Below, piece by piece: positions 1,487 to 18,872 of a stretch of 18,872 nt of DNA. This DNA is from a virus (Duplodnaviria > Heunggongvirae > Uroviricota > Caudoviricetes), in the IMG/VR virus record IMGVR_UViG_2663763227_000001, positions 1 through 18,872 of that record; one strand, written 5' to 3'. The translations under genes were made by a program, and so were the position numbers. Positions within the stretch are counted from its first letter, which is position 1. The number at the start of each line of letters is the position of its first letter. The notes beneath the pieces are model-generated. The model made no database searches, was not told the DNA's origin, and was given only the letters and a program-made list of their open reading frames with translations.

Positions 1487-1487
1487 C

Positions 1488-3123: not shown

Positions 3124-3152
3124 TTGCTTCCGAGAAATGAAAGTGGTATTTT
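3124..3152 (+). promoter_or_regulatory. Candidate late promoter (PR'-like): TTGCTT -35, 17-nt spacer, TG-extended -10 TATTTT
   Basis: TTGCTT at 3124-3129, TGg at 3144-3146, TATTTT at 3147-3152. Lies between the Q stop and the terminator at 3259-3290, which would give a transcript of about 130 nt. Weak consensus match; placement is by analogy with lambda PR'/tR'. Confidence 0.3.
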
Positions 3153-3258
3153 TCGTATATGCTCGGAGCAAAAGCGAACTGAGCAGCGAAATTGAAATCC
3201 TGATTTCCCCGGTTGTCGATAATATTTAGGGTCGACATACTGGCTAGATTAGGTAAGA

Positions 3259-3290
3259 GCCTCGGCATAAACGTCGGGGCTTTTTTGTTT
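3259..3290 (+). terminator. Intrinsic terminator, tR'-like (end of short late leader RNA)
   Basis: Hairpin GCCTCGGC / ATAAAC loop / GTCGGGGC (8 bp including two G-U pairs) followed by TTTTTTGTTT. The sequence just downstream (GCACAACAGGTAAGAGCATTGA) resembles the lambda region downstream of tR', from memory. Confidence 0.6.
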
Positions 3291-3718
3291 GCACAACAGG
3301 TAAGAGCATTGAACCCGCAGACCTCGCGGAATTGGCGAAAGGTGCCGCGCAGTGCTCTTATCGTTGTGGTGAAGCTCAATGGCGAGCTAGCAGATAGGCG
3401 ATAGTGAAAATACTAGTCATGTAGCTGACCGCCGCGCGTACTGCAATCGGCAGCGCACCGATGGAAGCCGGTTCGATTCCGGCTGCCACAACCCAAACTG
3501 AGCCGTAGCCACTGGCTATCCTAGATTCATCAGTGATAGTTATGCTGCGGCCTTCTACACATGACCTTCGTGAAAGCGGTGGCAAGAGGTTGCGCTAACA
3601 ACCTCCTGCCATTTTGCCCGTGCATATCGGTCACGAACAAATCTGATTACTAAACACAGTAGCCTGGATTTGTTCTATCAGTAATCGACCTTATTCCTAA
3701 TTAAATAGAGCAAATCCC

Positions 3719-3744
3719 CTTACTGGGGGTAAGACATGAAGATG
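3719..3744 (+). promoter_or_regulatory. S-gene translational control element: sdi-like hairpin over the SD plus dual-start motif ATG-AAG-ATG
   Basis: CTTAC (3719-3723) / TGGGG loop / GTAAG (3729-3733) immediately upstream of ATG 3736 and ATG 3742. This is the lambda S107/S105 antiholin/holin dual-start arrangement. Confidence 0.6.
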
Positions 3745-4059
3745 CCAGAAAAACATGACCTGTTAGCCGCCATTCTCGCGGCAAAGGAACAAGGCATCGG
3801 GGCAATCCTTGCGTTTGCAATGGCGTACCTTCGCGGCAGATATAATGGCGGTGCGTTTACAAAAACAGTAATCGACGCAACGATGTGCGCCATTATCGCC
3901 TGGTTCATTCGTGACCTTCTCGACTTCGCCGGACTAAGTAGCAATCTCGCTTATATAACGAGCGTGTTTATCGGCTACATCGGTACTGACTCGATTGGTT
4001 CGCTTATCAAACGCTTCGCTGCTAAAAAATCCGGAGTAGAAGATGGTGGAAATCAATAA
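3736..4059 (+). CDS. S: Holin S (lambda class I holin; S107 from ATG 3736, S105 from ATG 3742)
   Basis: 107-aa translation [45 protein letters not shown]... is nearly identical to lambda S as remembered. Confidence 0.95.
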
Positions 4060-4519
4060 TCAACGTAAGGCGTTCCTCGATATGCTGGCGTGGTCAGAGG
4101 GAACAGATAACGGACGACAGAAAACCAGAAATCACGGTTATGACGTCATTGTTGGCGGAGAGCTATTCACTGATTACTCCGATCACCCTCGCAAACTTGT
4201 CACGCTAAACCCCAAACTCAAATCAACAGCAGCCGGACGTTACCAGCTTCTTTCCCGTTGGTGGGATGCTTACCGTAAGCAGCTTGGCCTGAAAGACTTC
4301 TCTCCCAAAAGCCAGGACGCTGTTGCGCTGCAGCAGATTAAGGAGCGTGGCGCTTTACCGATGATTGATCGCGGTGATATTCGTCAGGCAATCGACCGTT
4401 GCAGCAATATCTGGGCTTCACTGCCGGGTGCTGGTTATGGTCAGTTCGAGCATAAGGCTGACAGCCTGATTGCAAAATTCAAAGAAGCTGGCGGAACGGT
4501 CAGAGAGATTGAGGTATGA
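4043..4519 (+). CDS. R: Endolysin R (lambda-type lytic transglycosylase)
   Basis: 158 aa; [51 protein letters not shown]... is nearly identical to lambda R. Start overlaps the end of S. Confidence 0.95.
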
Positions 4520-4974
4520 GCAGAGTAACCGCGATTATCTCCGCTCTGGCTATCTGCATCATCGTTTGCCTGTCATGGGCTGTTAATCATTACCGTGATA
4601 ACGCCACCGCCTACAAAGAGCAGCGCGATAACAAGGCCAGTGAACTGGAGAAGGCGAACGCCACCATCGCTGACATGCGGAAGCGTCAACGTGATGTAGC
4701 AGAACTCGACGCAAGATACACAAAGGAGCTTGCTGATGCTAACGCGACTATCGAAAGTCTCCGTGCTGATGTTTCTGCTGGGCGTAAGCGCCTGCAAGTC
4801 GCCGCCACCTGTGCAAAGTCAACGACCGGAGCCAGCGGCATGGGCGATGGAGAAAGCCCAGGACTTACAGCAGATGCTGAACTCAATTATTACCGTCTCC
4901 GAAGTGGAATCGACAAGATAACCGCGCAGGTTAACTACCTGCAGGAATACATCAGGACGCAATGCCTGAAATGA
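4516..4974 (+). CDS. Rz: Spanin inner-membrane subunit Rz (i-spanin)
   Basis: N-terminal TM segment [30 protein letters not shown] matches lambda Rz, followed by a coiled-coil periplasmic domain; the C-terminal half diverges from lambda. Start overlaps the R stop (ATGA). Confidence 0.9.
4736..4921 (+). CDS. Rz1: Spanin outer-membrane lipoprotein Rz1 (o-spanin), embedded in the +1 frame of Rz
   Basis: ORF lies wholly inside Rz in another frame. Signal peptide [20 protein letters not shown] with lipobox-like VSAC, then a proline-rich mature part [22 protein letters not shown] 7 nt upstream of ATG 4736; the ORF-track start at 4730 is TTG. Confidence 0.75.
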
Positions 4975-5009
4975 TCGGGCGATGAAAACCAAAAAAACAG
5001 GAGCAATAC

Positions 5010-5285
5010 ATGACTAAGTTTTATCACCGCATCTCAACTTTTCTCTCTGGTTGCTGGGTGTTTATCACGTCTATTTCGTTCGCCATCTTTAGTTTCGGTA
5101 GCACAGCGTGCTCGCTTAGTCGGGGTCTGTGGCGTGCTATTTCAGCACTAGCGCCGAAATTTTTACCTGAAAAGGCTGTTTGGCGAATTGTAGAGCGAAT
5201 GTGTAGTGAGAGCGTTCGCGAGAAGATTAACGTATTTGGACGTTATCCTCGAAATACAGGCGCATTGTGCAGTCCGTTACTGTAG
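5010..5285 (+). CDS. Hypothetical small membrane protein (91 aa)
   Basis: AGGAG 8 nt upstream of ATG 5010. One predicted hydrophobic segment (FLSGCWVFITSISFAIFSF). No recognised homolog; sits between the lysis cassette and packaging genes, a typical cargo position. Confidence 0.35.
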   Translation: MTKFYHRISTFLSGCWVFITSISFAIFSFGSTACSLSRGLWRAISALAPKFLPEKAVWRIVERMCSESVREKINVFGRYPRNTGALCSPLL

Positions 5286-5579
5286 TCATCACAAAGCCTA
5301 TCTACGGGTGGGCTTGATAATGAAACCGGAATTTATTCTGGGCAACCAGTTACGGCAGTACAGCGAAACAACCCAAGCCAGTAAGTGGGGAAATAACACT
5401 GGCAGCCACTGAAAGATGAACCTCCAGCCTTATGGCAAAAAAGATTCTTTGTGGTGGCGGACTGATGGAAAGACATCGGTTATTGCAGAGACCATTCAAT
5501 GAGTGGTCTCGACAATGGCTTATACCCTACACGGGATAACTTAACTGATATCCCTTTTAACGGATAAACGGAGCCAACA

Positions 5580-5822
5580 ATGGCAGAGATTATTCCCATG
5601 ACTGAAGAACAGAAATTCCAGTTAGAGATTTACAAACTGGTCATGAACCAGAACGCAGCCGCAGAAGAAGCATTTCAATTCATTGGCACTGACGAGCTGA
5701 AGCTTGAGCTATTCAAAATTCACTTCCAGTCAGGCGGCGCTAATTCAGATATCACGATCCGCACACTTGAAGCGGTGCGTAAATCTAAGGAAGCGTTAGA
5801 CCTGTTCACTACCGGAACATGA
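5580..5822 (+). CDS. Hypothetical protein (80 aa)
   Basis: SD ACGGAG 8 nt upstream of ATG 5580, preceded by a hairpin plus T-tract at 5533-5558. Acidic, helical-looking product; no recognised family. Confidence 0.5.
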   Translation: MAEIIPMTEEQKFQLEIYKLVMNQNAAAEEAFQFIGTDELKLELFKIHFQSGGANSDITIRTLEAVRKSKEALDLFTTGT

Positions 5823-5823
5823 T

Positions 5824-6003
5824 GTGAGCCGCGTAATCAATTTGGGTAAGGAGAAGAAATTCCCAATTACTCAAGAGCTATACGAGCGGCTTGAAAGCGT
5901 CATCCATGATTACGATGGTGAAATAAGTTTATGCGAGGCGATTGGCACACTCGAATTGCTGAAGCAGTCACTGATTGAAGGCGCGAAAGAGTCCTCAACC
6001 TGA
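5824..6003 (+). CDS. Hypothetical small protein (59 aa; GTG start uncertain)
   Basis: Open frame from GTG 5824 (just after the previous stop) to TGA 6001-6003, ending 23 nt before terS. No strong SD for the GTG. Below the ORF-track cutoff. Confidence 0.25.
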   Translation: MSRVINLGKEKKFPITQELYERLESVIHDYDGEISLCEAIGTLELLKQSLIEGAKESST

Positions 6004-6026
6004 AATGACAATTAAGTGAGATAAAT

Positions 6027-6449
6027 ATGGCGACTGAACCAAAAGCTGGTCGCCCCTCTGATTATATGCCGGAGGTGGCTGACGATATCTGCTCGTTGCT
6101 TTCTTCTGGCGAAAGTTTGCTGAAAGTATGTAAGCGTCCTGGTATGCCGGATAAGTCCACTGTTTTCCGCTGGTTGGCAAAGCATGAGGATTTTCGCGAC
6201 AAGTACGCGAAGGCAACTGAGGCGCGAGCTGATTCTATTTTCGAAGAGATATTCGAAATTGCTGACACTGCGATTCCAGATGCTGCTGAGGTGGCAAAGG
6301 CAAGACTTCGCGTTGATACCCGCAAATGGGCGCTGGCCCGAATGAATCCCCGTAAGTATGGCGACAAGGTAACTAACGAGCTTGTCGGCAAAGACGGCGG
6401 CGCAATCCAGATTGAAACATCACCGATGAGCACTCTATTCGTAAAATGA
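6027..6449 (+). CDS. terS: Terminase small subunit (Sf6 gp1-like TerS, 140 aa)
   Basis: MATEPKAGRPSDYMPEVADDICSLLSSGESLLKVCKRPGMPDKSTVFRWL... matches the Sf6-type small terminase from memory (same length, N-terminal HTH-like DNA-binding region). Directly upstream of terL. Confidence 0.9.
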   Translation: MATEPKAGRPSDYMPEVADDICSLLSSGESLLKVCKRPGMPDKSTVFRWLAKHEDFRDKYAKATEARADSIFEEIFEIADTAIPDAAEVAKARLRVDTRKWALARMNPRKYGDKVTNELVGKDGGAIQIETSPMSTLFVK

Positions 6450-7861
6450 CCTCGATTAATCCTATCTTTGAACCGTTCATTGAGGCGCATCGCTACAAAG
6501 TTGCCAAAGGCGGTCGAGGTAGCGGTAAATCATGGGCAATTGCGAGGCTGCTTGTTGAAGCGGCGCGTCGGCAGCCAGTGCGTATTCTCTGCGCTCGTGA
6601 ACTGCAAAACAGTATCAGCGATTCGGTAATCCGGTTGCTTGAAGACACCATAGAGCGTGAAGGGTATACGGCTGAGTTTGAAATTCAGCGTTCTATGATT
6701 CGTCATCTCGGAACGAATGCTGAATTCATGTTCTACGGCATAAAAAACAACCCGACGAAGATTAAATCGCTCGAAGGCATTGATATCTGCTGGGTTGAAG
6801 AAGCGGAAGCGGTAACGAAGGAATCGTGGGATATCCTGATTCCAACCATCCGTAAGCCGTTCTCTGAAATATGGGTAAGTTTCAACCCGAAAAACATCCT
6901 CGACGATACCTATCAGCGATTCGTCGTAAATCCTCCCGATGATATTTGTCTGCTGACGGTGAACTACACCGACAATCCGCACTTTCCTGAAGTTCTCCGT
7001 CTGGAGATGGAAGAGTGTAAACGCAGAAATCCGACACTGTATCGTCACATCTGGCTTGGTGAGCCAGTAAGCGCAAGTGATATGGCAATCATCAAACGTG
7101 AATGGCTTGAAGCTGCTACCGATGCGCACAAGAAACTCGGATGGAAAGCGAAAGGCGCTGTTGTCTCTGCGCATGACCCGTCAGATACAGGGCCAGATGC
7201 TAAAGGTTACGCATCGCGTCACGGTTCGGTGGTTAAGCGCATTGCCGAAGGTCTGCTGATGGACATCAACGATGGTGCTGACTGGGCTACTTCGCTGGCG
7301 ATTGAAGACGGCGCTGACCATTACCTGTGGGATGGTGATGGTGTTGGTGCCGGGCTACGCAGACAGACAACGGAAGCGTTCTCCGGCAAGAAAATCACCG
7401 CTACGATGTTCAAGGGCAGCGAATCGCCATTTGATGAAGATGCACCATATCAGGCCGGAGCATGGGCTGATGAAGTCGTGCAGGGCGACAACGTTCGCAC
7501 TATTGGCGATGTATTCCGCAATAAGCGAGCGCAATTCTATTACGCGCTGGCTGACAGGCTGTATCTGACATATCGGGCGGTTGTCCACGGTGAGTATGCA
7601 GACCCCGACGACATGCTGAGTTTCGACAAAGAAGCGATAGGCGAGAAGATGCTGGAGAAGCTGTTTGCAGAACTGACGCAGATTCAGCGCAAATTCAATA
7701 ACAACGGGAAGCTGGAGCTAATGACTAAGGTCGAAATGAAGCAGAAGCTAGGTATTCCATCTCCTAACCTGGCTGATGCGTTGATGATGTGTATGCATTG
7801 CCCTGAGTCGGCTGCGCAACCCGACTATTCCAGTTACTCAATTCCTTGTGGTGTAGGTTGA
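6446..7861 (+). CDS. terL: Terminase large subunit (ATPase/nuclease; Sf6 gp2 / P22 gp2-like)
   Basis: 471 aa; Walker A KGGRGSGKS near the N-terminus and an acidic nuclease-like C-terminal domain. Start overlaps the terS stop (ATGA). Length and synteny match P22/Sf6 TerL. Confidence 0.95.
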   Translation: MTSINPIFEPFIEAHRYKVAKGGRGSGKSWAIARLLVEAARRQPVRILCARELQNSISDSVIRLLEDTIEREGYTAEFEIQRSMIRHLGTNAEFMFYGIKNNPTKIKSLEGIDICWVEEAEAVTKESWDILIPTIRKPFSEIWVSFNPKNILDDTYQRFVVNPPDDICLLTVNYTDNPHFPEVLRLEMEECKRRNPTLYRHIWLGEPVSASDMAIIKREWLEAATDAHKKLGWKAKGAVVSAHDPSDTGPDAKGYASRHGSVVKRIAEGLLMDINDGADWATSLAIEDGADHYLWDGDGVGAGLRRQTTEAFSGKKITATMFKGSESPFDEDAPYQAGAWADEVVQGDNVRTIGDVFRNKRAQFYYALADRLYLTYRAVVHGEYADPDDMLSFDKEAIGEKMLEKLFAELTQIQRKFNNNGKLELMTKVEMKQKLGIPSPNLADALMMCMHCPESAAQPDYSSYSIPCGVG

Positions 7862-7862
7862 T

Positions 7863-10061
7863 ATGGCAGAAAAAAAGATGACTGACTGGCATCGCAAGGT
7901 GCTGTGCAACTTTGATAATGCCTGGTCAGCAACGCAGGATATGCGTGAGCAGATTATTGAGGCTCAACGTTTCGTCCGGGTGTCCGGCGCACAGTGGGAA
8001 GGCAGCACAAACGCTGGTTACTCATTTGATGAAGGTAGGTTTGAGCATTACCCGCGCTTTGAACTAAATAAGATTGCCCGTGAATGTGATCGCATCATTG
8101 GCGAGTATCGACAGAATCGCATCAGCGTTAAATTCAGGCCGAAGGACGATAAGGCATCGGAAGCGTTAGCCGAAAAGATGAACGGCAAATTCCGCGCTGA
8201 CTATCAGGAAACATCCGGTGGCGAAGCGTGTGATAACGCATTTGATGATGCTGTAACGGGCGGATTCGGTTGTTTCCGCATGTGTGCCGATTACGAAGAT
8301 GAAATGGATCCGAGTAACGAGCAACGCCGTATAAGCCTTCTCCCTGTTTACGACCCAGCGACATGCGTCTTCTTTGATCAGGACAGCAAGCAATATGACC
8401 GCTCTGATGCTATGTGGGCTATGGAAATGTTCTCCATGACGCCTAAAGCGTTCGAGGCTGAATACCCTGATTCCATCGCGGCAAGCCTTTCTCGTGATGA
8501 CACTGGCACTCAATATGACTGGTCAACGCCCGATGCCATCTATGTTGGACGCTACTACGAAGTTCGCATAGAGAAGGTGAAGCTCACGGCGTGGCGCAAC
8601 CCTGTTAGCGGAGAAACGGCAATCTATGATGAAGAGCAAATCAAAGATGTTGTCGACGAGCTAACCGATGGCGCATTCGAACTGATTGGTGAGCGAACGG
8701 TGAAGAAACGCCGCGTTTATTGCGGCCTTCTGTCTGGCGCTGAATGGCTGGAAGAACCGAAGCGTATTCCGGGCGAACATATTCCTCTCATCCCGGTATA
8801 TGGGCGTCGTTCATTTGTTGATAATCAGGAGCGAATCGAAGGCCACGCAGCAAAAGCGATGGATGCACAGCGTCTTGAGAACCTGATGGTTTCCATGATT
8901 GCAGATAACGCCACTCAGGCTGGCGGTGATGGTATTCCTGTAGTTGATGTTGACATGATTCCTGGTCCTCTCGCCACTCATTGGGCGGAGCGCAACAAAA
9001 AGCGCCCGGCGTTCCTGCCGATGGTCAGTCTGAAAAACAAAAACGGAGATATTACTGCGCAGGCTCAGGTCAGCAGTTATACACCTCCAACACAAATGCC
9101 TCCTGCTCTTGCCGGGCTATTACAGTACACCGGAACGGCTATTCAGCAAATTACAGGTGCGTCGCAGCTTGAGAACATGCCGAGCAACGTCGCTACCGAT
9201 ACCGTTGATAGCATCTTTAACAGGATGGACACGCAGTCATATATCTACATGGACAACATGGCTAAATCCATGCGTCGCGCTGGCGTTGTGTGGCTTTCTA
9301 TGGCGCGTGAGGTCTATGGCAGCGATACGCCAATGCGCATCGTTAATGAGGACGGCAGCGATGACGTGGCGCTGATGACTGGTGAAGTGGTTGACCGTCA
9401 GACAGGGCAGGTTATCGCGCTTAACGACCTTTCGCAGGGTAACTATGAAGTGACTGTCGATGTTGGTCAGTCGTTCGCTACTCGCCGTGATGCAACGGTT
9501 AAGTCGTTACTTTCCATGCTGGCACTTATCCCGCCTGGAACGCCGAAACACGACCTTGTGTCGTCTCTTATTCTCGACAATATGGACGGCGAAGGGATGG
9601 ACGACCTTAAAGAATACAACCGCAATCAGTTGCTTCTGTCTGGCGTTATCAAGCCGAAAACGCCAGAAGAACAGCAAATGGTTGAGCAGGCGAAACAACA
9701 ACAGGCCAGTCAGCCAGATCCGGCTATGGTTGCTGCGCAAGGTCAGCTTCTTGCTGGTCAGGCTGAATTGCAGAAAGCGCAGAACGAACAGGCAGCCATT
9801 CAGGTTAAAGCATTCCAGGCACAGACTGATGCTCATGTTGCAGCGGCAAATGTTGTGAAAATCCTCGCATCTGCCGATAGCCAGCAGAAATCTGATATCC
9901 GCGAGGCTCTGAAACTGCTCGGACAGTTCCAGCAACAGCAAGGAGACAATGCCCGTGCTGATGCAGAGCTTGTCCTGAAAAGTCAGGCGCAGGGACATGC
10001 ACAACGCATGGACATCAGCAGCATCCTGCAAAAATCAACTCAGCAACAACCACAGCAGTAA
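7863..10061 (+). CDS. Portal protein (P22 gp1-like, with C-terminal Gln-rich helical barrel)
   Basis: 732 aa; segments GRYYEV, GEHIPLIPVYG, KTPEEQQMVEQAKQQQ...DPAMVAAQGQLLAGQAELQKAQN and NARADAELVLKS...QRMDISSILQ align with P22 portal gp1 as remembered, including the long C-terminal barrel helix. Confidence 0.95.
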   Translation: MAEKKMTDWHRKVLCNFDNAWSATQDMREQIIEAQRFVRVSGAQWEGSTNAGYSFDEGRFEHYPRFELNKIARECDRIIGEYRQNRISVKFRPKDDKASEALAEKMNGKFRADYQETSGGEACDNAFDDAVTGGFGCFRMCADYEDEMDPSNEQRRISLLPVYDPATCVFFDQDSKQYDRSDAMWAMEMFSMTPKAFEAEYPDSIAASLSRDDTGTQYDWSTPDAIYVGRYYEVRIEKVKLTAWRNPVSGETAIYDEEQIKDVVDELTDGAFELIGERTVKKRRVYCGLLSGAEWLEEPKRIPGEHIPLIPVYGRRSFVDNQERIEGHAAKAMDAQRLENLMVSMIADNATQAGGDGIPVVDVDMIPGPLATHWAERNKKRPAFLPMVSLKNKNGDITAQAQVSSYTPPTQMPPALAGLLQYTGTAIQQITGASQLENMPSNVATDTVDSIFNRMDTQSYIYMDNMAKSMRRAGVVWLSMAREVYGSDTPMRIVNEDGSDDVALMTGEVVDRQTGQVIALNDLSQGNYEVTVDVGQSFATRRDATVKSLLSMLALIPPGTPKHDLVSSLILDNMDGEGMDDLKEYNRNQLLLSGVIKPKTPEEQQMVEQAKQQQASQPDPAMVAAQGQLLAGQAELQKAQNEQAAIQVKAFQAQTDAHVAAANVVKILASADSQQKSDIREALKLLGQFQQQQGDNARADAELVLKSQAQGHAQRMDISSILQKSTQQQPQQ

Positions 10062-10151
10062 TTAACCCATAACGTGCAATGGCTGTCTTTATGAGGCCTG
10101 GCACCCTATTGCCTTCCGATGGGCTGAACATCGAGTAAACAGGGGTAACAA

Positions 10152-11048
10152 ATGGACCAGATGGCAGAAAACACACCAGAAGTTGAAATCGAAACCGACG
10201 CGTCAGAGCAGATTCCTGATGATGTCAAACTGGCTGAAGAAGTCGAAACAGAAGATGGCAGTGAGTACTCCGGCAATGATGCAGAGAAAGCTACTGAAAC
10301 TGATGACGACGAATCAGAACAGGAATTCTACTTTGGTGACGAAAAGCTGGATTCGCCAACCAGCGAAGATGGCGCAGAGCATGGACTGGTAAAACACCTG
10401 CGCAAGACGATTAAAGAGAAAGACCGTGAGCTGAAAGAGCTGATGCGTCAGTCTCAGAAACCCGTCGAGCAGCAGCCGGTAATCACTCAACCACCTCGAA
10501 TGCCAAAACTGGATGATGAGGACATTGGTTTCGATGAAGAAATCTACCAGCAACGCATGGCTAAGTGGGCAGAGGATAACGGCAAGTACCAGCAACAGGA
10601 GATGGCTCGCAAGCAGAAGGAGCAGGAGCTTCAGGCTGCCTATCAAGAGCGATTATCCAAATATCAGCAACGTGTTAAGGCTCTCAAAGTTCCTGGCTAT
10701 CAGGAAGCTGAGCAGGCCGTACTCGAGGAAATCCCCATCGAGACACAAAACGCGATCCTGTTTGAGTCAGAGAAGCCGGAAATCGTTGTTCTGGCGCTCG
10801 GTCGCAACGCTGAACTGCGCAAGAAACTGGCAGAAGCTACCAACCCCGTAGCAATTGGTCGTCTGCTGGAACGTATCGAATCGAAGGCCAGAATCATGCC
10901 AAAAGCAAAAACCACGGCAGCCACAACCCCGACAGTTAAGGGGAGCAACGGCGCAGTAATCAATAACCTCGACAAACTTCTCGAAAAAGCACGCGACACC
11001 GGTGATTACACCGAATACCGGGCGGCGAAGAACAAAGCTAAAAAATAA
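10152..11048 (+). CDS. Scaffolding protein (P22 gp8-like)
   Basis: 298 aa, highly acidic N-terminus, coiled-coil-rich, basic helix-turn-helix-like C-terminus (...DTGDYTEYRAAKNKAKK). Position between portal and coat as in P22/Sf6. Confidence 0.8.
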   Translation: MDQMAENTPEVEIETDASEQIPDDVKLAEEVETEDGSEYSGNDAEKATETDDDESEQEFYFGDEKLDSPTSEDGAEHGLVKHLRKTIKEKDRELKELMRQSQKPVEQQPVITQPPRMPKLDDEDIGFDEEIYQQRMAKWAEDNGKYQQQEMARKQKEQELQAAYQERLSKYQQRVKALKVPGYQEAEQAVLEEIPIETQNAILFESEKPEIVVLALGRNAELRKKLAEATNPVAIGRLLERIESKARIMPKAKTTAATTPTVKGSNGAVINNLDKLLEKARDTGDYTEYRAAKNKAKK

Positions 11049-11068
11049 TCCATCGGAGCTAAATACCT

Positions 11069-12328
11069 ATGTCTAACCAGTTAACCAAAGACCTCGAAAT
11101 CCTCTTTGAGAGCGTCATTGATAGTTTTGAGGCGTCCAATGTCGTTTCCCGCGAGTGCAGCAAGTTCCGACCGGGCGACATTGAAATGCAGCGCGCTGGC
11201 GACGTTGTTTATCGCCCTCAGGGCTACCACCTGAAAACCGTGAGCGGACTTGATCTGACTTCGGCCACTGCAAACTCACTCGTTCAGCGTCAGGTGCCTG
11301 CTCGCTTCCGCGAGCCAGAGAACGTCATCTACGAACTGGACGCAAAAGAAATGCGCGATCCGTGGCACAAAGAGCAGGCTGGCAAGGCGGCGGGTCGCCA
11401 GTTGGCGGCGTGGGTTGATAACATGATCGTCGATGAGGTGGTCGCTCGCTCCACCAACGTGGTCACCATTAAATCGGCGTCCACCGGTAGCACTCTCGGC
11501 GAAGAACTCTGGAACGCATCGGCTGACGTTGATGCAATGATGCTGTCCATTGGTGTGCCTCAGGGTGGTCAGCGCAAGGCGTTCTACAACCCGTTCAACT
11601 ACAAAGACCTGGCTAAGGAGCTTGGCTCTCGCGCATATGCGGTCGGTGCAACTCTGACAGCCTATGAGAAAGCTCAGATTCCACCTGTGGCATCCTTCGA
11701 CAGTTTCCGCGTTGATTATGCTGGCGCAATGAAGGCTGGTTCAGCTACCGCTGTAACTCTCGGCGGCGCAGTAAAACACAAAGTTACCGCGATGGATTCC
11801 AACGGCGCGCCTACCGATAACCGCCAGGGTGACATCACCGTATCCACTGCTGACGTACTGGCTGTCGGCGATGCATTCACTATCGCAGGCGTTAACAGTG
11901 TCCACATGATCAAGAAGGTGGATACAGGTAAGCCGCAGGTATTCCGCGTCCTGGCAGTAAATGGCACTACCGTTACCATCAGCCCGAAAATTCTGCCACC
12001 AGACAACGCGGATAAGGCGTCTATTCCTTACCAGAACGTTACCGCCAATCCGGTGGAAAACGCGGCGATCACCATCCTCAACAAGAAGGCTGCGGCTTCC
12101 AACATCTTCTTCGCTGAGGGTTCTGTTGAGCTGATGTATGGCAAGTTGGCATTCCCTACCGGCCAGGGTCCGCAGGTTATGACCGCAAGGACCGAGCAGG
12201 GTGCGACCATCATCATGGCTTACCAGTTCGACGCTAAATCTGGCAAAACGTGGACTCGCTTCACCACGCTGGCTGGCGCAAGCGTACTGGTCCCGGAATT
12301 CACCGGCCTGGTACTGGCTAACCAGTAA
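11069..12328 (+). CDS. Major capsid (coat) protein (P22 gp5 / Sf6 gp5-like)
   Basis: 419 aa in the expected position after the scaffold gene and followed by a strong intrinsic terminator; size matches P22-type coat proteins. Sequence similarity to P22 gp5 itself is not obvious by eye. Confidence 0.85.
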   Translation: MSNQLTKDLEILFESVIDSFEASNVVSRECSKFRPGDIEMQRAGDVVYRPQGYHLKTVSGLDLTSATANSLVQRQVPARFREPENVIYELDAKEMRDPWHKEQAGKAAGRQLAAWVDNMIVDEVVARSTNVVTIKSASTGSTLGEELWNASADVDAMMLSIGVPQGGQRKAFYNPFNYKDLAKELGSRAYAVGATLTAYEKAQIPPVASFDSFRVDYAGAMKAGSATAVTLGGAVKHKVTAMDSNGAPTDNRQGDITVSTADVLAVGDAFTIAGVNSVHMIKKVDTGKPQVFRVLAVNGTTVTISPKILPPDNADKASIPYQNVTANPVENAAITILNKKAAASNIFFAEGSVELMYGKLAFPTGQGPQVMTARTEQGATIIMAYQFDAKSGKTWTRFTTLAGASVLVPEFTGLVLANQ

Positions 12329-12333
12329 TCCAA

Positions 12334-12358
12334 GGGGCTTCGGCCCCTCTTTTTTTTT
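12334..12358 (+). terminator. Intrinsic terminator downstream of the coat gene
   Basis: GGGGC-TTCG-GCCCC hairpin (GC-rich 5-bp stem with a TTCG tetraloop) followed by TCTTTTTTTTT, 6 nt after the coat stop. Confidence 0.8.
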
Positions 12359-12368
12359 GGAGATCGAA

Positions 12369-12557
12369 ATGTCTCAAATCATGCTTTATAAGCCGGGATC
12401 GATGATCACCTGCGGCCCCCACTCGCTGGATTACATCATCGTTGATGACGAAGAAGTTAAATCTCACCTGAAAAAAGGCTGGGTAAAAACTCCTGAAGAA
12501 ACCGCAACGAAGCAAAAAGTGGCTAAGGCGGAAGAAGATGGCGAAAATGAAGGGTGA
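12369..12557 (+). CDS. Hypothetical small protein (62 aa) between coat and gp4-like genes
   Basis: ATG 12369 with GGAG about 7 nt upstream; C-terminal acidic tail; 3' end overlaps the next gene. The ORF track shows an upstream extension from 12201 that overlaps the coat gene and is unlikely. Confidence 0.45.
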   Translation: MSQIMLYKPGSMITCGPHSLDYIIVDDEEVKSHLKKGWVKTPEETATKQKVAKAEEDGENEG

Positions 12558-12999
12558 TCTCGTTCTAAAGGCTTTACGAAAAGCCGGGCTGTATTCCAAT
12601 GCCACGTTGACAGATGCTGACCCTCAGGCAATTGAAGATGCCATTAATGACCTCGAAGACATGATGGCAGCATGGCAGGCTAAAGGTATCGAGCTTGGAT
12701 ATCAGTTTGCTGATACAGAAAACGGCATCATGCCGTTACCTGACGATGATTCAGGTATCCCTGCATGGGCAAATGATGGCGTCGCTTTGAAACTCGCTGT
12801 GCAAGTGTGCATGGATAACGTCATTCAGCCGTCAGACGCTCTCCTTACCGCTGCTGACAGTGCATATCAGACAATCTGCATCGCTTTAACCAAAATACCA
12901 CCACTTGAGCGGCGAAATGACATGCCTCGCGGTAGTGGTAACAAAAGCGCGTTTACGTGGAATCGGTTTTACATCGAGAAAGATGATCCGAGTACGTGA
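12538..12999 (+). CDS. Head completion / tail accessory protein (P22 gp4-like)
   Basis: 153 aa; KGDLVLKALRKAG...TLTDADPQAIEDAINDLEDMMAAWQ...MPRGSGN parallels P22 gp4 (KGDLV, TLTD, DDLE-MMA-W, GSGN). Correct synteny. Confidence 0.85.
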   Translation: MAKMKGDLVLKALRKAGLYSNATLTDADPQAIEDAINDLEDMMAAWQAKGIELGYQFADTENGIMPLPDDDSGIPAWANDGVALKLAVQVCMDNVIQPSDALLTAADSAYQTICIALTKIPPLERRNDMPRGSGNKSAFTWNRFYIEKDDPST

Positions 13000-13008
13000 G
13001 GTGAATAA

Positions 13009-14427
13009 ATGCCGATTCAGCAACTTCCGCTTATGAAAGGTGTCGGCAAAGACTTTCGAAACGCCGACTATATCGACTATCTGCCAGTGAATATGCTGGC
13101 TACGCCCAAAGAAATACTCAACAGCAGCGGATATCTTCGCTCATTCCCGGGCATTGCCAAACGTTCTGATGTGAACGGCGTATCGCGGGGCGTCGAGTAC
13201 AACATGGCGCAGAATGCTGTTTATCGCGTGTGTGGTGGCAAGCTCTACAAAGGCGAAAGCGAAGTAGGTGACGTCGCCGGAAGTGGTCGCGTATCAATGG
13301 CGCATGGTCGAACATCTCAGGCTGTAGGAGTTAATGGTCAACTGGTCGAGTATCGCTATGATGGCACGGTTAAAACCGTCTCAAACTGGCCTACAGATCG
13401 CGGATTCACGCAGTATGAGTTAGGTTCGGTTCGCGACATTACACGCTTACGTGGCCGTTATGCGTGGTCAAAAGACGGAACTGATTCATGGTTCATCACT
13501 GACCTTGAAGACGAATCGCATCCTGACCGTTACAGCGCACAATATCGCGCAGAATCGCAGCCGGACGGCATCATCGGCATCGGAACATGGCGAGACTTCA
13601 TCGTCTGCTTTGGTTCATCGACGATTGAATATTTTTCCCTGACTGGGGCAACCACCGTTGGTGCCGCTTTGTATGTCGCACAGCCATCACTGATGGTGCA
13701 GAAAGGCATTGCCGGAACTTACTGCAAAACGCCGTTTGCTGATTCCTATGCTTTCATCAGCAATCCGGCAACAGGTGCGCCGTCTGTATACATCATCGGA
13801 TCCGGTCAGGTGTCACCAATCGCCAGCGCGAGCATTGAGAAAATCCTCCGCTCCTACACTGCTGATGAACTGGCTGATGGCGTGATGGAATCGTTGCGCT
13901 TTGATGCTCATGAGTTGCTGATTATCCACCTTCCGCGCCACGTCCTAGTATATGACGCATCTTCAAGCGCCAATGGTCCGCAATGGTGTGTGTTGAAAAC
14001 TGGCTTGTATGACGATGTGTACCGCGCTATCGACTTCATTTACGAAGGCAATCAGATAACGTGCGGCGATAAGCTGGAATCCGTGACCGGGAAATTGCAG
14101 TTCGACATCAGCAGCCAGTATGGGCTGCAGCAAGAACATATTTTATTTTCACCATTAATAAAGGCAGATAATGTCATTATTAATGACCTTGAATTAGAAA
14201 CATCAGGCGGCGTGTGTGATAGAATAGATAAAATATTTATATCAGCAACAACAGATGGAATAAATTACGGCAGGGAACAAATGGTCGTATTGCAATCTCC
14301 ATTTGTATATGACAATCGAGTCTTATGGCGCAGGATTGGAAGAGTTAGACGTCTCATCGGTTTTAAATTCAGAGTTATTGCAAAAGGCCCGGTTACATTA
14401 TCCGGACTGTCTATTCGTACAACATAA
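13009..14427 (+). CDS. Tail accessory / hub protein (P22 gp10-like); 3' ~300 nt compositionally AT-rich
   Basis: 472 aa, the same length as P22 gp10, in the correct position after the gp4-like gene. GC content drops sharply from about 14130 to the stop, continuous with the AT-rich HNH gene downstream. Confidence 0.9.
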   Translation: MPIQQLPLMKGVGKDFRNADYIDYLPVNMLATPKEILNSSGYLRSFPGIAKRSDVNGVSRGVEYNMAQNAVYRVCGGKLYKGESEVGDVAGSGRVSMAHGRTSQAVGVNGQLVEYRYDGTVKTVSNWPTDRGFTQYELGSVRDITRLRGRYAWSKDGTDSWFITDLEDESHPDRYSAQYRAESQPDGIIGIGTWRDFIVCFGSSTIEYFSLTGATTVGAALYVAQPSLMVQKGIAGTYCKTPFADSYAFISNPATGAPSVYIIGSGQVSPIASASIEKILRSYTADELADGVMESLRFDAHELLIIHLPRHVLVYDASSSANGPQWCVLKTGLYDDVYRAIDFIYEGNQITCGDKLESVTGKLQFDISSQYGLQQEHILFSPLIKADNVIINDLELETSGGVCDRIDKIFISATTDGINYGREQMVVLQSPFVYDNRVLWRRIGRVRRLIGFKFRVIAKGPVTLSGLSIRTT

Positions 14428-14448
14428 ATCGAAACTTAAGGAGTAGAT

Positions 14449-14994
14449 ATGTTAAGTGAAGATATTAGAGATGTAGTTGGTTATGAGGGGCTTTATGCGG
14501 TAACTCGTGATGGTAGAGTTTACTCTCACTCAAGGATAATAAATACATGCCATGGGGCTACTCGATTAATGAAGGGTAGATGGCTGAAGCCAGCAAAGGA
14601 TGGGGGCGGATATCTATTTGTTGGTCTCTGTAAGGATGGAGAGGTTAAACCAAAAAAAATACATCGAATTGTTGCTGAGGCATTTATTGAAAACAAAGAA
14701 TCTAAACCATTCATCAACCATATAGATAATAATAATCAAAATAATAATGTAGAAAATCTTGAATGGTGTACGCAACATGAAAACATGCAGCATTGCTCTA
14801 GAAGCGGTAGGGTGAAAATACCTCATTATGTGGGTTCTGAACATCCATCGTCCAAATTAAATGAAGATATAGTTCTGGTCATAAAAAATGATTTGATTAC
14901 GCCAATTAGCGAGTTAGCTGCAAGATATAATGTGACTGTTCAGGCCATACACGCCATTAAAAAAGGGAAGACATGGAGGCATGTGAATGGCTGA
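14449..14994 (+). CDS. HNH homing endonuclease (NUMOD4 N-terminal domain, HNH motif, C-terminal HTH)
   Basis: N-terminus [21 protein letters not shown]...GGYLFVGL (NUMOD4-like); [41 protein letters not shown] (HNH); C-terminal HTH-like segment. AT-rich. Excellent SD AAGGAG. Inserted between the gp10-like and gp26-like genes; its stop overlaps the gp26 start. Confidence 0.85.
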
Positions 14995-15688
14995 TCCCAA
15001 TCTCAACGTGCCAGTAACTATCCAGGCCACCCGGCTAGACACATCAATCCTGCCGCGAAATATCTTCTCGCAGTCGTACCTGCTGTACGTTATCGCTCAG
15101 GGTACCGATGCCAGTAACGTGGCTAACAAGGCAAATCAGGCTGGTCAGGGCGCTTACGATGCTCAGGTGAAAAACGATGAACAGGACGTCGAACTGGCAG
15201 ATCACGATTCAAGAATCACCGCAAACACAAAAGCGATAAATCTCCTTGAGGTCAGGTTAACAACCGCCGAAGGGAAGATAGTCGTACTGCGTAGCGATGT
15301 TGATTACTTGCTGGATGAGGTTATCGATATTCAGGCGCATCTGGTCACTGTTGACAAAAGACTGGATGGCGTAGAAAGCGATGTATCTGACATTAAGAGT
15401 GATTACGTATCGAAAACCGTAACAGAATCGCAGTCTCTTGCGTCACCGCTGGATGTAAAAACATCATATTCAGTTGATGGAATTCAGGTTGTTGGAGCAA
15501 GAAATACCGGATGGACTGCAGCCACAGGTACGCCACTTCTTGGCTCATTCAACGCTAACCAGTCATACACTGTCGGCACTACGTACACACAATCCGAAGT
15601 CGCAGCTCTCGCTACAGGTTTGCAGCAGGCGCGGCAGCGTATTCTGGCGCTTGAAACAGCACTTAGATTACATGGGCTGATTGACTGA
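14987..15688 (+). CDS. Tail needle / plug protein (P22 gp26-like)
   Basis: 233 aa, the same length as P22 gp26; [41 protein letters not shown]...[18 protein letters not shown]... matches P22 gp26 closely from memory, with coiled-coil heptads. Confidence 0.9.
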
Positions 15689-16143
15689 TGATTACATTCA
15701 AACCAACGCGAAACATCGACCTGATAGAAGCCGTGGGAAATCACCCCGACATTATCGCTGGTAGCAACAACGGTGATGGATACGACTACAAGCCTGAATG
15801 CCGTTACTTTGAGGTTAACGTGCACGGTCAGTTTGGCGGCATTGTTTACTATCAGGAGATTCAGCCGCTTACATTCGATTGCCACGCCATGTACCTGCCA
15901 GAGGTTCGCGGATTCAGCAAGGAAATCGGGCTGGCGTTCTGGCGATACATTCTGACTAACACCACCGTTCAGTGCGTCACATCGTTCGCTGCACGCAAAT
16001 TCCGCCACGGGCAGATGTACTGCGCAATGATTGGCCTTAAGCGTGTAGGAACCATCAAGAAATACTTCAAAGGCGTGGATGACGTGACGTTTTACAGCGC
16101 CACACGTGAAGAACTAATCGACTTCCTGAATCACGGGAGATAG
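15688..16143 (+). CDS. Virion protein in the P22 gene 14 position (gp14-like)
   Basis: 151-aa ORF whose start overlaps the gp26 stop (TGATG). Synteny with P22 (26-14-7-20-16); function assigned by position only. Confidence 0.7.
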   Translation: MITFKPTRNIDLIEAVGNHPDIIAGSNNGDGYDYKPECRYFEVNVHGQFGGIVYYQEIQPLTFDCHAMYLPEVRGFSKEIGLAFWRYILTNTTVQCVTSFAARKFRHGQMYCAMIGLKRVGTIKKYFKGVDDVTFYSATREELIDFLNHGR

Positions 16144-16145
16144 CC

Positions 16146-16838
16146 ATGTTATATGCATTTAAGCTGGGCAGAAAACTGCGCGGCGAGGAACCGTATTGCC
16201 CTGAAAAAGGCGGGAAAGGTGGCAGTTCTGATAAAAGTGCAAAGTATGCCGCAGAAGCTCAGAAGTATGCCGCAGACCTGCAAAATCAGCAGTTCAACAC
16301 CATCATGAACAACCTGAAGCCGTTTACTCCTCTGGCTGGGAAGTATGTCGGCAGCCTTGAGAACTTATCGTCTCTGGAAGGGCAAGGTCAGGCACTTAAC
16401 CAGTATTACAACTCTCAGCAGTATAAAGACCTTGCTGGTCAGGCTCGCTATCAGAGTCTGGCGGCAGCGGAAGCAACAGGTGGATTGGGTTCCACCGCAA
16501 CCAGTAATCAGTTAGCAACAATCGCACCAACGCTTGGTCAGCAATGGCTGTCTGGACAAATGAACAATTACAACAACCTGGCAAATATCGGTCTTGGCGC
16601 TCTTCAGGGACAGGCAAACGCCGGGCAAACATATGCCAACAACATGAGTCAGATTTCACAGCAAAGCGCGGCGCTGGCGGCGGCAAACGCCAACCGACCG
16701 TCAGCATTGCGGCAGGGTGTTAGTGGTGCTGCATCCGGTGCGCTTTTGGGTGGTGGTATAGCCAGTGCTCTCGAGCTATCAACTCCGTGGGGTGCTGGTA
16801 TCGGTGCTGGTCTTGGTCTGCTTGGTTCGCTGTTTTAA
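16146..16838 (+). CDS. Ejection (E) protein, P22 gp7-like
   Basis: 230 aa (P22 gp7 about 229 aa); N-terminus MLYAFKLGRKLRGEEPYCPEKGGKGG; Gln/Asn-rich middle and Gly/Ala-rich hydrophobic C-terminus; correct synteny. Confidence 0.85.
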   Translation: MLYAFKLGRKLRGEEPYCPEKGGKGGSSDKSAKYAAEAQKYAADLQNQQFNTIMNNLKPFTPLAGKYVGSLENLSSLEGQGQALNQYYNSQQYKDLAGQARYQSLAAAEATGGLGSTATSNQLATIAPTLGQQWLSGQMNNYNNLANIGLGALQGQANAGQTYANNMSQISQQSAALAAANANRPSALRQGVSGAASGALLGGGIASALELSTPWGAGIGAGLGLLGSLF

Positions 16839-16848
16839 GGGGTAATCA

Positions 16849-18192
16849 ATGGCTACTTGGCAACAGGGTATTAATTCTGGTGGTTTTCTGGCTGGCATCG
16901 GTACGCAAAATGAGAATGCGCCAAAGGCAAGCGACATTAACGCAACGCTTGGTCTGATTCGCGAAAACAATGAACTGGCTCGATCAGGTGCAAATAACGT
17001 TGGTCTGACCGCGTTACGTGGTCTGGCTGGAGTTGCTGATATTTATAAGCAGCAGCAACAGCAGGAACGTAAAGCGGCATTCCAGAAAGGTTATGCGGAT
17101 GCTTATGCGTCCGGCGACAGGGAGCAGATGCGTAATCTTATTACAGCATTCCCCGAAGAGTTTGAGGAAGTCCGTAAAGGCATGGGGTATGTCGATGACG
17201 CCCAGCGGAATGATTTTGGCAATCTGGCGCTCAAGGCTCAGGTAGCTTCGTCGCTTGGTCCGGGTGCATTTGGCAGGTTTATGATGGATAGCGAAAAGGA
17301 GATGCGTCGTTTAGGTATCCCTCCAGAAACTATTGCTGAAATGCAGGTTAATGACCCGCAGGGCTTCCAGCACTTTGCAGGTAATCTGGCACTATTTTCT
17401 CTCGGCCATGAGAAGTATTTCGATATCAAAGATCAAATGGAGGGGCGTCGACTTGAGCAAGGGCGATTGGATGAAAGCATCCGTCAGGCTGACATGGAGA
17501 ATGCGAGAGGATGGGCAAATATCCAGAACGCTCAACTAGACAGGGCTCAGCGGGCACAAATGCACTCAGATGAGATGGGATTGAAGCTAATGGAGCTGGG
17601 GCAAAAAGGTAAGCCGTCAGCAGACTTAATTAAGGGATTAAATTCTGACATTACCAATTTTGGCAAAAATTATAACTCTGTCAGAGCGGCGGCAAACTCT
17701 CTGCAAGCCCTTAGCAAGGTAAATACTGGCGCTGCCCAACTTGGGATTATCTTTAATTACATGAAGTCTCTCGACCCTCAGTCAGTTGTTCGCGAAGGTG
17801 AACAGGTTCAGGTCATGCGCTCTGATGGCATATGGGGGCAGATAAAAGGATATGTAGACCAGCTTAATGCAGGGAATGGCTTGTCACAGGAAGCGAGGGA
17901 TAACATTGTCAACGCAGCAAAAATTAACGCCAACGCTATGGGGCAGCAGTTTAACCAGCAGGTAGACGAATATCTGGATACGTATGGAGATACTATTCCT
18001 CAGGGGCTGAAAAAAAGTTTAGGGAGAAGGAAGGCCAAGCTATTTGACGATGTCCCAGCGCAGCCTACACCACAAGGTGGTAATGGGCAGACAAAAGCTG
18101 CGCCAAGTGGGATATCAGAAGGCGCGACGGCAACGAACCCTAAAACTGGTCAGAAACTCATTTATAGGAACGGACAATGGCAACCGATGTAG
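16849..18192 (+). CDS. Ejection (E) protein, P22 gp20-like
   Basis: 447-aa ORF in the expected position between the gp7-like and gp16-like genes; size comparable to P22 gp20. Confidence 0.8.
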   Translation: MATWQQGINSGGFLAGIGTQNENAPKASDINATLGLIRENNELARSGANNVGLTALRGLAGVADIYKQQQQQERKAAFQKGYADAYASGDREQMRNLITAFPEEFEEVRKGMGYVDDAQRNDFGNLALKAQVASSLGPGAFGRFMMDSEKEMRRLGIPPETIAEMQVNDPQGFQHFAGNLALFSLGHEKYFDIKDQMEGRRLEQGRLDESIRQADMENARGWANIQNAQLDRAQRAQMHSDEMGLKLMELGQKGKPSADLIKGLNSDITNFGKNYNSVRAAANSLQALSKVNTGAAQLGIIFNYMKSLDPQSVVREGEQVQVMRSDGIWGQIKGYVDQLNAGNGLSQEARDNIVNAAKINANAMGQQFNQQVDEYLDTYGDTIPQGLKKSLGRRKAKLFDDVPAQPTPQGGNGQTKAAPSGISEGATATNPKTGQKLIYRNGQWQPM

Positions 18193-18612
18193 GTTTACCC
18201 GAAGGCTTTGTTCTCGATAATCAGCCTGATAACTCACAGCTTCCTGATGGCTTTGTGCTTGATTCCCAACCAGAACAGCAGCAATCTCCTTTGGTTTCAC
18301 CAGAGGAAAATTCCAGACAGGAAAATGTTGTTAATAATGCTAACGGTTTCGACCGTTTTATGTATGGCGTTCTCAGTGGATTGATGGATGTTGGTAAAGG
18401 TGTTGGCCTGTTTCAGGACATGACACCAGAAGAGCAAGCCGCAATTCAGTCTCTACAGCAGAAGTTAGCGGCAAAACCATCAACCGCACAAGATGTTGGT
18501 GAGTTCGTTGGACAAGCAGCACCATTTGTTAGTGGTGGTGGGATTATTTCTCAGGTTCCGAAAGGGGCGGCAAGGCTGGCTGCCGCCGCAGGGCTTGGTG
18601 CTGGAGAAGGGG
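18177..18612 (+). pseudogene. Ejection protein gp16-like, 5' fragment only (about 145 codons) truncated by IS insertion
   Basis: ORF starts overlapping the gp20-like stop; N-terminal tandem motif LPEGFVLDNQP / LPDGFVLDSQP. Phage-like sequence ends at 18612, where the IS terminal repeat TGAACCGCCCCGG begins. The ORF-track extension to 18773 is read-through into the IS. P22 gp16 is about 600 aa. Confidence 0.8.
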
Positions 18613-18872
18613 TGAACCGCCCCGGGTTTCCTGGAGAGTGTTTTATCTGTGAACTCAGGCTGCCAGATCATCGTTTCCGATGGAAGCATAATAAGCTTTT
18701 TCTGCTTCTGCCGGAGGAGTATGGCCCAGCCTTTCCAGCAATCGTCGATTGTTATACCAGTCCACCCACGTGAGTGTGGCCAGTTCCACTTCTGCACGGT
18801 TTTTCCAGCTCTTACGGTGTATTACCTCCGCTTTGTAAAGGCCATTGATGCTCTCCGCCATCGCGTTGTCAT
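18613..18872 (-). mobile_element. IS3-family insertion sequence (IS629/IS1203-like), right end; continues beyond the window
   Basis: Terminal inverted repeat begins TGAACCGCCCCGGG at 18613. The minus strand encodes the C-terminal end of an IS3-family OrfB transposase ending at 18655. Resembles IS629-group ends as remembered. Confidence 0.85.
18655..18872 (-). CDS. IS3-family transposase OrfB, C-terminal part (partial, runs off the window edge)
   Basis: Minus-strand translation ...DNAMAESINGLYKAEVIHRKSWKNRAEVELATLTWVDWYNNRRLLERLGHTPPAEAEKAYY...-stop: DDE integrase-core C-terminus including the residues after the catalytic E. The real N-terminus lies outside the window. Confidence 0.85.
   Translation of the reverse strand, partial: DNAMAESINGLYKAEVIHRKSWKNRAEVELATLTWVDWYNNRRLLERLGHTPPAEAEKAYYASIGNDDLAA

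Follow-up and report, generated by a model that had tools for sequence, protein, structure and literature searches.

A probable mobile HNH homing-endonuclease cassette that includes a heterologous gp10 3' end, located between the tail genes gp10 and gp26 of an Escherichia coli P22-like phage

We examined the late region of an Escherichia coli P22/HK620-like phage (Lederbergvirus), IMG/VR record IMGVR_UViG_2663763227_000001, and in particular a block of 847 nucleotides (nt) at 14140-14986 that comprises the 3' end of the tail hub gene gp10 and a free-standing endonuclease gene and that ends where the tail needle gene gp26 begins. All coordinates are those of the whole stretch analyzed, positions 1 to 18,872 of that record, which we call the window. 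None of the deposited phages matches the window over more than 63% of its length, and a prophage of E. coli KE40 is almost identical to it over 7874-17441. A reading made from the DNA letters without database searches (hereafter the sequence-only reading) had described an endonuclease gene with NUMOD4, HNH and helix-turn-helix (HTH) parts between gp10 and gp26, its stop overlapping the gp26 start by 8 nt, and had proposed that the end of gp10 was co-converted along with this gene from an AT-rich donor phage. The gene and its overlap are present as described, at 14449-14994 and 14987-14994, respectively, and the block that they belong to is probably a mobile cassette. The features of the locus are listed here, with GC denoting the fraction of guanine plus cytosine, GC3 the same fraction at third codon positions, and dN and dS nonsynonymous and synonymous divergence.

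13009-14427, + strand: gp10 (tail hub) gene, Pfam Phage_stabilise with E 5e-281, TAA stop at 14425-14427
13009-14139, + strand: body of gp10, of the resident E. coli P22-like type, 98.9% amino acid identity to HK620 gp10, dN 0.006, GC 0.515
13890-14085, + strand: gene-conversion patch of 196 nt to the left of the cassette, 16 substitutions relative to the KE40 prophage
14139/14140, + strand: left cassette junction, GAACAT/ATTTTA, common to all 38 carrier loci read
14140-14427, + strand: foreign AT-rich 3' end of gp10 (its last 95 codons and stop), GC 0.358, GC3 0.25, 62% amino acid identity to HK620
14428-14448, + strand: 21-nt spacer with the endonuclease ribosome-binding site, AAGGAG at 14438-14443
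14449-14994, + strand: free-standing NUMOD4-HNH-HTH endonuclease gene, 181 amino acids, Pfam NUMOD4 and HNH_3, match to I-HmuI
14975-14979, + strand: gp26 ribosome-binding site GGAGG, inside the last endonuclease codons and 7 nt before the gp26 ATG
14987-14994, + strand: 8-nt overlap of the endonuclease stop and the gp26 start, ATGGCTGA, with the right cassette junction, as read from the sequence
14987-15688, + strand: gp26 tail needle gene, GC 0.49 overall and 0.54 in its first 180 nt

The spacer between gp10 and the endonuclease gene is kept in all carriers of the cassette (TAAATCGAAAC..AGGAGTAGAT), and at the right junction the sequence shared with HK620 starts again at AATGGCTGA. In HK620, CUS-3 and most relatives, gp10 directly abuts gp26 with nothing inserted between them. 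On the + strand we found neither a promoter nor a terminator of the endonuclease gene, and an RNA structure that would hide its ribosome-binding site, as occurs in some T4 endonuclease genes, received a z of only +0.5, which is not significant. The insertion does the phage little harm, with gp10 kept at full length, the new gene carried on the late-operon transcript, and the ribosome-binding site and overlapping start of gp26 supplied by the cassette itself. The protein is already in RefSeq, the window product being identical to WP_042048397.1 from KE40.

The block is set apart by its composition. GC3 drops from 0.54 in the gp10 body to 0.25 in the gp10 tail and is 0.30 in the endonuclease gene, and the block as a whole, with a GC of 0.368 (z = -3.9), is the lowest of all 847-nt windows in the sequence. 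Only one further stretch of the 18.9-kb window has a comparably low GC, namely the first HNH gene (980-1486, GC 0.359). The sequence-only reading had held that the last ~300 nt of gp10 share the low GC of the endonuclease gene, and the values of 0.358 and 0.377, against 0.515 in the body, bear this out with a significant difference; the start that it gave for the foreign segment, 14130, lies within 10 nt of the junction that we find.

Alignment with HK620 locates the breakpoint that had been predicted for gp10. Identity in successive 60-nt steps is 93-100% up to ~14130 and then ~54-60% over the last 288 nt of the gene, and the switch falls at 14139/14140, where HK620 reads GAACA(C/T) followed by CTGCTG and the window reads GAACAT followed by ATTTTA. 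To the left of this point dS is 0.23 at the low dN given above, and to the right the two genes are 54% identical in DNA, with a dN of 0.36 and saturated dS, so that dN rises 60-fold at a single codon boundary. Both proteins are nonetheless 472 amino acids long and align without an indel, and the longest identical run shared by the two tails is 9 nt. The C-terminus of the window gp10 is a chimera with a sharp breakpoint, and the cassette block replaces 288 nt rather than being simply inserted. At conserved residues of the tail, the third bases of HK620 match those of the window at 15 of 57 positions; this 26% is the saturation expectation, so the tail gave no evidence of selection for maximal codon difference.

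We then asked how widely this arrangement is shared, reading the junction in 38 independent carrier loci and measuring GC in 30 carriers. Of the 5426 complete E. coli genomes compared, 914 have a match to the region and 56 of these contain the AT-rich tail, and in all 56 the tail and an endonuclease gene occur together (4 of class A, the window type, 16 of class B and 36 of class C). The same holds in IMG/VR for 23 of 23 loci with the AT-rich tail, each of which has the endonuclease gene or a remnant of it 21 nt after the gp10 stop, the remnant at locus L053 being only the first six endonuclease codons. The cassette is a presence/absence polymorphism at one fixed site, always 21 nt 3' of the gp10 stop, and ~94% of the E. 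coli P22-like gp10-gp26 loci are without it. The junction GAACAT/ATTTT is identical in 38/38 carrier loci, with one exception after the junction, the TTGTT of L130, and in about a third of the loci donor-type sequence is present already from ~14109, ~30 nt earlier. In the carriers measured, the gp10 body has a GC of 0.48-0.56 and the tail one of 0.34-0.41. The tails of other carriers are 86-95% identical to that of the window, with gp10 bodies at 70-99%, and in distant P22-like backbones (L064, L065, L130, L131 and L133) a body only 70-80% identical to that of the window is joined at the same junction to a tail that is 86-89% identical. Because the junction is the same in all 38 loci, including those on the distant backbones, the chimera is old, widely shared and inherited with the cassette and is not the product of recent co-conversion in the window phage.

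The comparison of cassettes with their flanks points to movement of the block between backbones. A class-A cassette that is identical to that of the window, or has 1 mismatch, occurs in four other E. coli prophages with gp10 bodies 93-95% identical to the window, and uninterrupted identity to the window runs over 14059-15036 in NRZ105822, over 14128-15198 in PEC011, and from 14086 rightward in KE40 and AF46. In 16 locus pairs the cassettes differ by at most 2 nt over 835-847 nt and the left 1-kb flanks differ by 4.7-8.9%, a flank divergence that predicts ~45 differences inside the cassette, where 0-2 are seen. Past the left end of the cassette these pairs stay identical for only 9-146 nt (median 18), and past its right end for 22-77 nt (median 50). 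The block thus moves between backbones as a unit, which is the pattern expected of homing with co-conversion. On the question of endonuclease-driven co-conversion, then, the chimera, the linkage (56/56 and 23/23) and the mobility of the unit favor the sequence-only reading, and its implication of a recent event in the window phage does not stand. The linkage has a simple basis. The longest in-register identical run between carrier and resident tails is 9-11 nt, and since the tail shares no longer run with the resident tails, no crossover separates it from the endonuclease gene; the heterology of the tail is sufficient to account for the absolute linkage as well as for the clustering of breakpoints at the tail edge.

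A trace of exchange is also seen just outside the block. Between the window and the KE40 prophage, over 9123-16192, the only differences are the 16 substitutions in the patch at 13890-14085, the right edge of which lies 54 nt short of the cassette junction, and within 13969-14088 HK620 and phage HZ41 both show 100% identity to the window. A patch this near the junction suggests a local recombination hot spot. Around the block we found no flanking direct repeats and saw no terminal inverted repeats of the kind that mark transposon ends, and a transposable insertion (insertion sequence (IS) or transposon) was rejected, given the lack of direct repeats and the replacement of 288 nt. The sole long-range inverted pair, a 12-nt repeat (92% complementary) at 14098-14109 and 15185-15196, 1075 nt apart, does flank the cassette and is probably there by chance.

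The endonuclease itself is intact. Its 181-residue product matches Pfam NUMOD4 (E 2.6e-8) and HNH_3 (E 9.4e-9), both above the cut-off, and its sole sequence match in the PDB is I-HmuI (1U3E, E 5e-12). An AlphaFold2 model with a mean predicted local distance difference test score (pLDDT) of 90.9 finds the same protein as its top Foldseek match over the full length (E 2e-8), with 182 columns aligned to the 174 residues of 1U3E and a template-modeling (TM) score of 0.53-0.55. In the model, β-strands occupy residues 6-70 (the NUMOD4 module, pLDDT 89-97), and the C-terminal helices at 139-147, 153-160 and 164-171 form a helix-turn-helix; the protein had no Pfam HTH match at E <= 0.01, and its class B and C relatives give weak HTH_3 and HTH_23 matches. 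The prediction is consistent with an I-HmuI-like fold. Residues N90-H91-I92-D93, N103, N112 and H115 align with I-HmuI, so that the His general base and the Asn/His metal-binding residues of the HNH core are present, and the catalytic residues N90, H91, D93, N103, N112 and H115 are invariant or nearly so across 7 cassette endonucleases and 55 homologues. The C-terminal W-x-H-x-x-G motif, encoded over the gp26 ribosome-binding site, is invariant in all cassette endonucleases. With a dN/dS of 0.04-0.055 in class A, the enzyme is under purifying selection and looks functional.

Two other origins for such a gene were considered and rejected. An intron- or intein-encoded endonuclease is incompatible with a gp10 that has its own TAA and an endonuclease gene that has its own ribosome-binding site and ATG, and Rfam, which includes group I and group II introns, gave no match in 13500-15700 at E <= 1. 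A terminase-associated HNH protein of the HK97 gp74 type was dismissed because ~6.6 kb separate the gene from the terminase genes upstream of it (6027-7861) and ~94% of the related E. coli loci lack it.

Tails and endonucleases do not share a single history, a further point on which the sequence-only reading is not supported. The tails of classes B and C are 96% identical in DNA, and their endonucleases are only ~50% identical in protein (cassette regions of L001, L007 and L134), with L134 carrying a fourth endonuclease type, 48% identical to that of the window, on a B/C-type tail. The site thus has four or more endonuclease classes, namely A, B, C and that of L134, which are only ~45-56% identical in protein and are found on two closely related tails. 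The N-terminal ~47 residues of the class B enzyme are almost identical to those of an enzyme encoded at the 5' end of gp10 in phage UPF_BP1. These comparisons indicate swapping of endonuclease genes together with domain shuffling.

Taken together, we favor the reading, to which we assign a probability of roughly 75%, that 14140-14986 is a mobile cassette made up of a free-standing I-HmuI-like HNH homing-endonuclease gene and the heterologous last 95 codons of gp10, and that it spreads by intronless homing; the sequence comparisons, the structural model and the analogy with known systems all point this way. When a carrier phage or prophage and a cassette-free P22-like genome meet in one cell, the enzyme would be made from the late operon and would nick or cut the allele that lacks the cassette, either within the gp10 3' end or adjacent to it. 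Copying of the carrier allele during repair would then transfer both the endonuclease gene and the heterologous tail. The tail would always be co-converted, and crossovers, resolving where homology first begins on each side, would place mosaic breakpoints no more than tens of nt from 14139 and from the gp26 start. In the carrier the whole gp10 tail is heterologous to resident tails (54% DNA identity) and the gp10/gp26 junction is disrupted. The tail probably gives the carrier immunity to its own enzyme. This role of the tail, the cleavage and its site are what we infer by analogy with characterized homing endonucleases.

Several observations weigh against this reading or narrow it. The population pattern shows movement of the block rather than the enzyme as its driver, and many of the carriers are prophages, some of them defective, so vertical inheritance also contributes to the distribution. 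The unit is not strictly clonal because the phylogenies of tail and endonuclease disagree; HZ41 has 87% DNA identity in the tail and 57% in the endonuclease gene, and L065 has 82% and 77%. The foreign flank, moreover, is on the left only. Co-conversion from an AT-rich donor, as the sequence-only reading proposed it, should mark the right flank too, but the first 180 nt of gp26 have a normal GC of 0.54, and right-hand co-conversion from the same AT-rich donor was rejected for this reason. The gp26 5' haplotypes are mosaic and independent of endonuclease class. Finally, the AT-rich donor phage itself did not come to light. A tblastn search with the 97-residue tail against 50,697 phage records, GTDB (one genome per species) and IMG/VR found no donor with a natively AT-rich, closely related gp10, and a search of a 5.8-billion-protein set gave only short fragments and was of little use.

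What that search did reveal is that tail identities to the window are bimodal, at 87-95% or at <=68%, with nothing between 68% and 87%. The upper group includes the tail of HZ41 (92.8%) and the 23 IMG/VR contigs with an AT-rich tail (87-95%). Endonuclease-free tails from 18 Enterobacterales lineages have a mean mutual identity of 77%, and the cassette tail is 57-68% identical to them (mean 62%), a range that also takes in the tails of Arsenophonus, in which gp10 is natively AT-rich over its full length. The cassette tail is consequently an outgroup, being 57-68% identical to all endonuclease-free tails sampled against 77% among themselves. With these values, and with gp10 bodies of normal GC in the carriers measured, the proposed AT-rich donor phage is still a hypothesis; had there been one, the event would be far older than the window phage, and the tail would have come from an unsampled AT-rich lineage.

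Other explanations must be set against homing. The tail and the HNH gene could have been acquired once and since shuffled by general recombination (Erf/Red-like or RecA) as part of ordinary phage mosaicism, with the HNH gene a passenger or already dead for homing. P22-like genomes are indeed highly mosaic, as seen in the failure of any deposited phage to match more than 63% of the window and in a further boundary between gp4 and gp10; the heterology of the tail would by itself account for the pile-up of breakpoints at its edge, and cleavage by the enzyme is predicted from sequence and analogy. We nevertheless regard this explanation as unlikely, as a passenger would not be expected to retain all its catalytic residues at a dN/dS of 0.04-0.055, nor shuffling to leave 0-2 differences in the cassette where the flanks predict ~45. 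Breakpoints also lie close to both ends of the block, including the right end, where homology in gp26 is good. In addition, an unrelated HNH-AP2 gene has entered the gp10/gp26 junction in another phage, and a NUMOD4-HNH gene related to that of the window has entered gp10 at its opposite end, as is typical of active homing genes. It is less probable still that the low GC and divergence of the tail arose in place, by mutational bias or by selection for downstream regulatory signals, rather than by import. The shared composition of tail and endonuclease gene and the fruitless donor search would fit such an origin, yet it would have to produce a 60-fold jump in dN at a single codon boundary, the same tail (86-95%) in backbones with gp10 bodies 70-99% identical, and tail identities of 87-95% or <=68%, and the + strand has no promoter-like site; we consider it very improbable.

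A different possibility is that the HNH protein mainly serves the phage, as a weapon of marker exclusion, a packaging HNH protein or a nuclease for defence or anti-defence, and that the block has spread through this benefit. Packaging in P22-like phages is by the headful mechanism and requires no cos-site HNH partner, and the gene does not adjoin the terminase genes; nor is the gene needed for growth, as ~94% of the E. coli P22-like gp10-gp26 loci do without it. Purifying selection on the gene, its late-operon expression (as judged from the layout) and its keeping of the translation signals for the needle gene would all be expected of a protein useful to the phage, and a competitive edge for flanking markers is a known effect of I-HmuI, I-HmuII and the endonucleases of T4 (PMC2988022, PMC2790892). 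Marker exclusion, however, is a consequence of the homing mechanism and not an alternative to it, and overall a service to the phage seems a distinctly improbable explanation, although less so than an origin of the tail in place.

The homing reading draws on several characterized systems. The closest solved relative, by both sequence and fold, is I-HmuI (PDB 1U3E); I-HmuI and I-HmuII, of the Bacillus phages SPO1 and SP82, nick one strand and drive co-conversion and the exclusion of flanking markers (PMC2790892, PMC2988022). I-HmuI resembles the window enzyme in its N-terminal β-sheet DNA-binding domain, HNH domain and C-terminal helix-turn-helix, and I-HmuI and I-HmuII are diverged alleles at the same genomic site, as are classes A, B and C here. 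I-HmuI differs in lying inside a group I intron of a DNA polymerase gene, whereas the window gene is free-standing between tail genes; the two proteins have only ~26% sequence identity, and the host here is a Gram-negative temperate podophage. In its setting the cassette is more like T4 MobE. This free-standing HNH gene lacks a promoter and lies between nrdA and nrdB in a single operon; its target is in the neighbouring essential gene of endonuclease-free relatives, with polymorphisms in the carrier proposed to confer immunity and the flanks co-converted (PMC2790892). In MobE, however, the HNH domain is N-terminal and the DNA-binding region is of a different kind, the carrier and recipient nrdB differ by scattered polymorphisms rather than by a fully heterologous block of 288 nt, and activity has been mapped in vivo where here homing is predicted from sequence. 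The closest parallel to the replaced gp10 end comes from T4 SegF and SegG, which cut inside a neighbouring gene, away from the insertion, so that the intervening stretch is obligatorily co-converted and part of the recipient gene is replaced by the donor version (PMC2988022); these are GIY-YIG enzymes of virulent T-even phages that make double-strand breaks. The pattern of the cassette also fits the wider rule that nuclease genes stand at boundaries of genetic exchange, in 'HEG (homing endonuclease gene) islands' (Barth, Dunham and Seed 2023, PMC10448857). Such islands have endonuclease genes next to essential or structural genes at recombination boundaries, show domain shuffling, comparable to the NUMOD4 module common to the 5'-site and 3'-site genes here, and include cases in which two endonuclease genes bracket an essential gene, comparable to L007 around gp10; they are described from ICP1, T4-like and other lytic phages and mostly involve the T5orf172 and IPA-HNH families (PMC10448857).

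We found no description of a P22-like gp10/gp26 cassette in the searchable literature, and it may have been mentioned earlier in subscription papers on P22-like mosaicism. No new mechanism is revealed, the cassette being a clear but ordinary example of probable intronless homing. It does provide a clean, natural and well-replicated case, in temperate enterobacterial phages, of a homing gene locked to a piece of an essential neighbour with breakpoints fixed to tens of nt. Given that gp10 is reported to be ~90% conserved among the P22-like phages of Salmonella, Escherichia and Shigella (PMC9728967), the cassette accounts for a puzzling segment of 62% identity in an otherwise conserved protein, and trees built from gp10 will be confounded by it. 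P22, HK620 and Sf6, which are amenable to genetics and free of the cassette, offer a system for nick-initiated homing, tract lengths and allele competition beyond T4 and SPO1. On a more tentative level, and with low confidence, the gp10/gp26 site might be a multi-allelic competition system comparable to I-HmuI versus I-HmuII, in which each enzyme might preferentially cut other cassette alleles as well as empty sites and the tails serve as determinants of specificity or immunity. The apical domain of gp10, through which the protein docks on the gp4 adaptor, is built jointly from its N- and C-terminal extensions (PMC9728967), and a second cassette, found at the 5' end of the gene, brings with it a recoded N-terminal segment of ~40 codons; 5' and 3' elements could then replace the apical domain piecewise and force its co-evolution.

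That 5' cassette is found in Salmonella phage UPF_BP1 (L003 1500-2400) and in E. coli 30602_1#64 (L007 536-1330), where a NUMOD4-HNH gene related to that of the window lies at the 5' end of gp10. Its order is a resident gp10 remnant of 93 nt (96% identical to the window), the endonuclease gene, and then the recoded first ~120 nt of gp10, with a DNA identity of 47-73%. It is an independent parallel to the 3' cassette. The prophage of 30602_1#64 (L007) has both, so that a 5' and a 3' endonuclease gene bracket gp10. Phage vB_EcoP-683R2 (ON470594; L004 2922-3416) has an open reading frame (ORF) annotated as 'endolysin' between gp10 and gp26 that is in fact an HNH_3 and AP2 endonuclease; this gene is unrelated to the cassette endonucleases and occupies the same junction, and the gp10 tail there is of the resident type and has not been replaced.

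Some carriers have been altered further. An IS1 (L125 2841-3538, E. coli M160133) and an IS3 (L126 2877-4105, E. coli ETEC6334) have inserted 3' of the gp10 stop, ahead of the endonuclease gene, and the class C cassette persists in a heavily deleted prophage remnant by torI, a KplE1-type locus, in E. coli K_EC180 (L010) and in ETEC6334 (L126). In both of these torI-side remnants the terminase, gp4 and needle genes are truncated, and gp10 and the endonuclease gene are intact.

Elsewhere in the window, the first HNH gene (ORF 980-1486) matches HNH_3 with an E of 1.2e-19 and shares the low GC noted above (0.359). It lies within 944-1486, which, in comparison with the KE40 prophage, is a clean presence/absence insertion of 543 nt in the nin region, window positions 943/1487 corresponding to 2928/2933 of L129. 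A second mosaic boundary falls at the gp4/gp10 border (12538-13008), where HK620 and 683R2 align with the window at 93% from 12999 on and gp4 and the sequence upstream align at only 70-77%, in short pieces.

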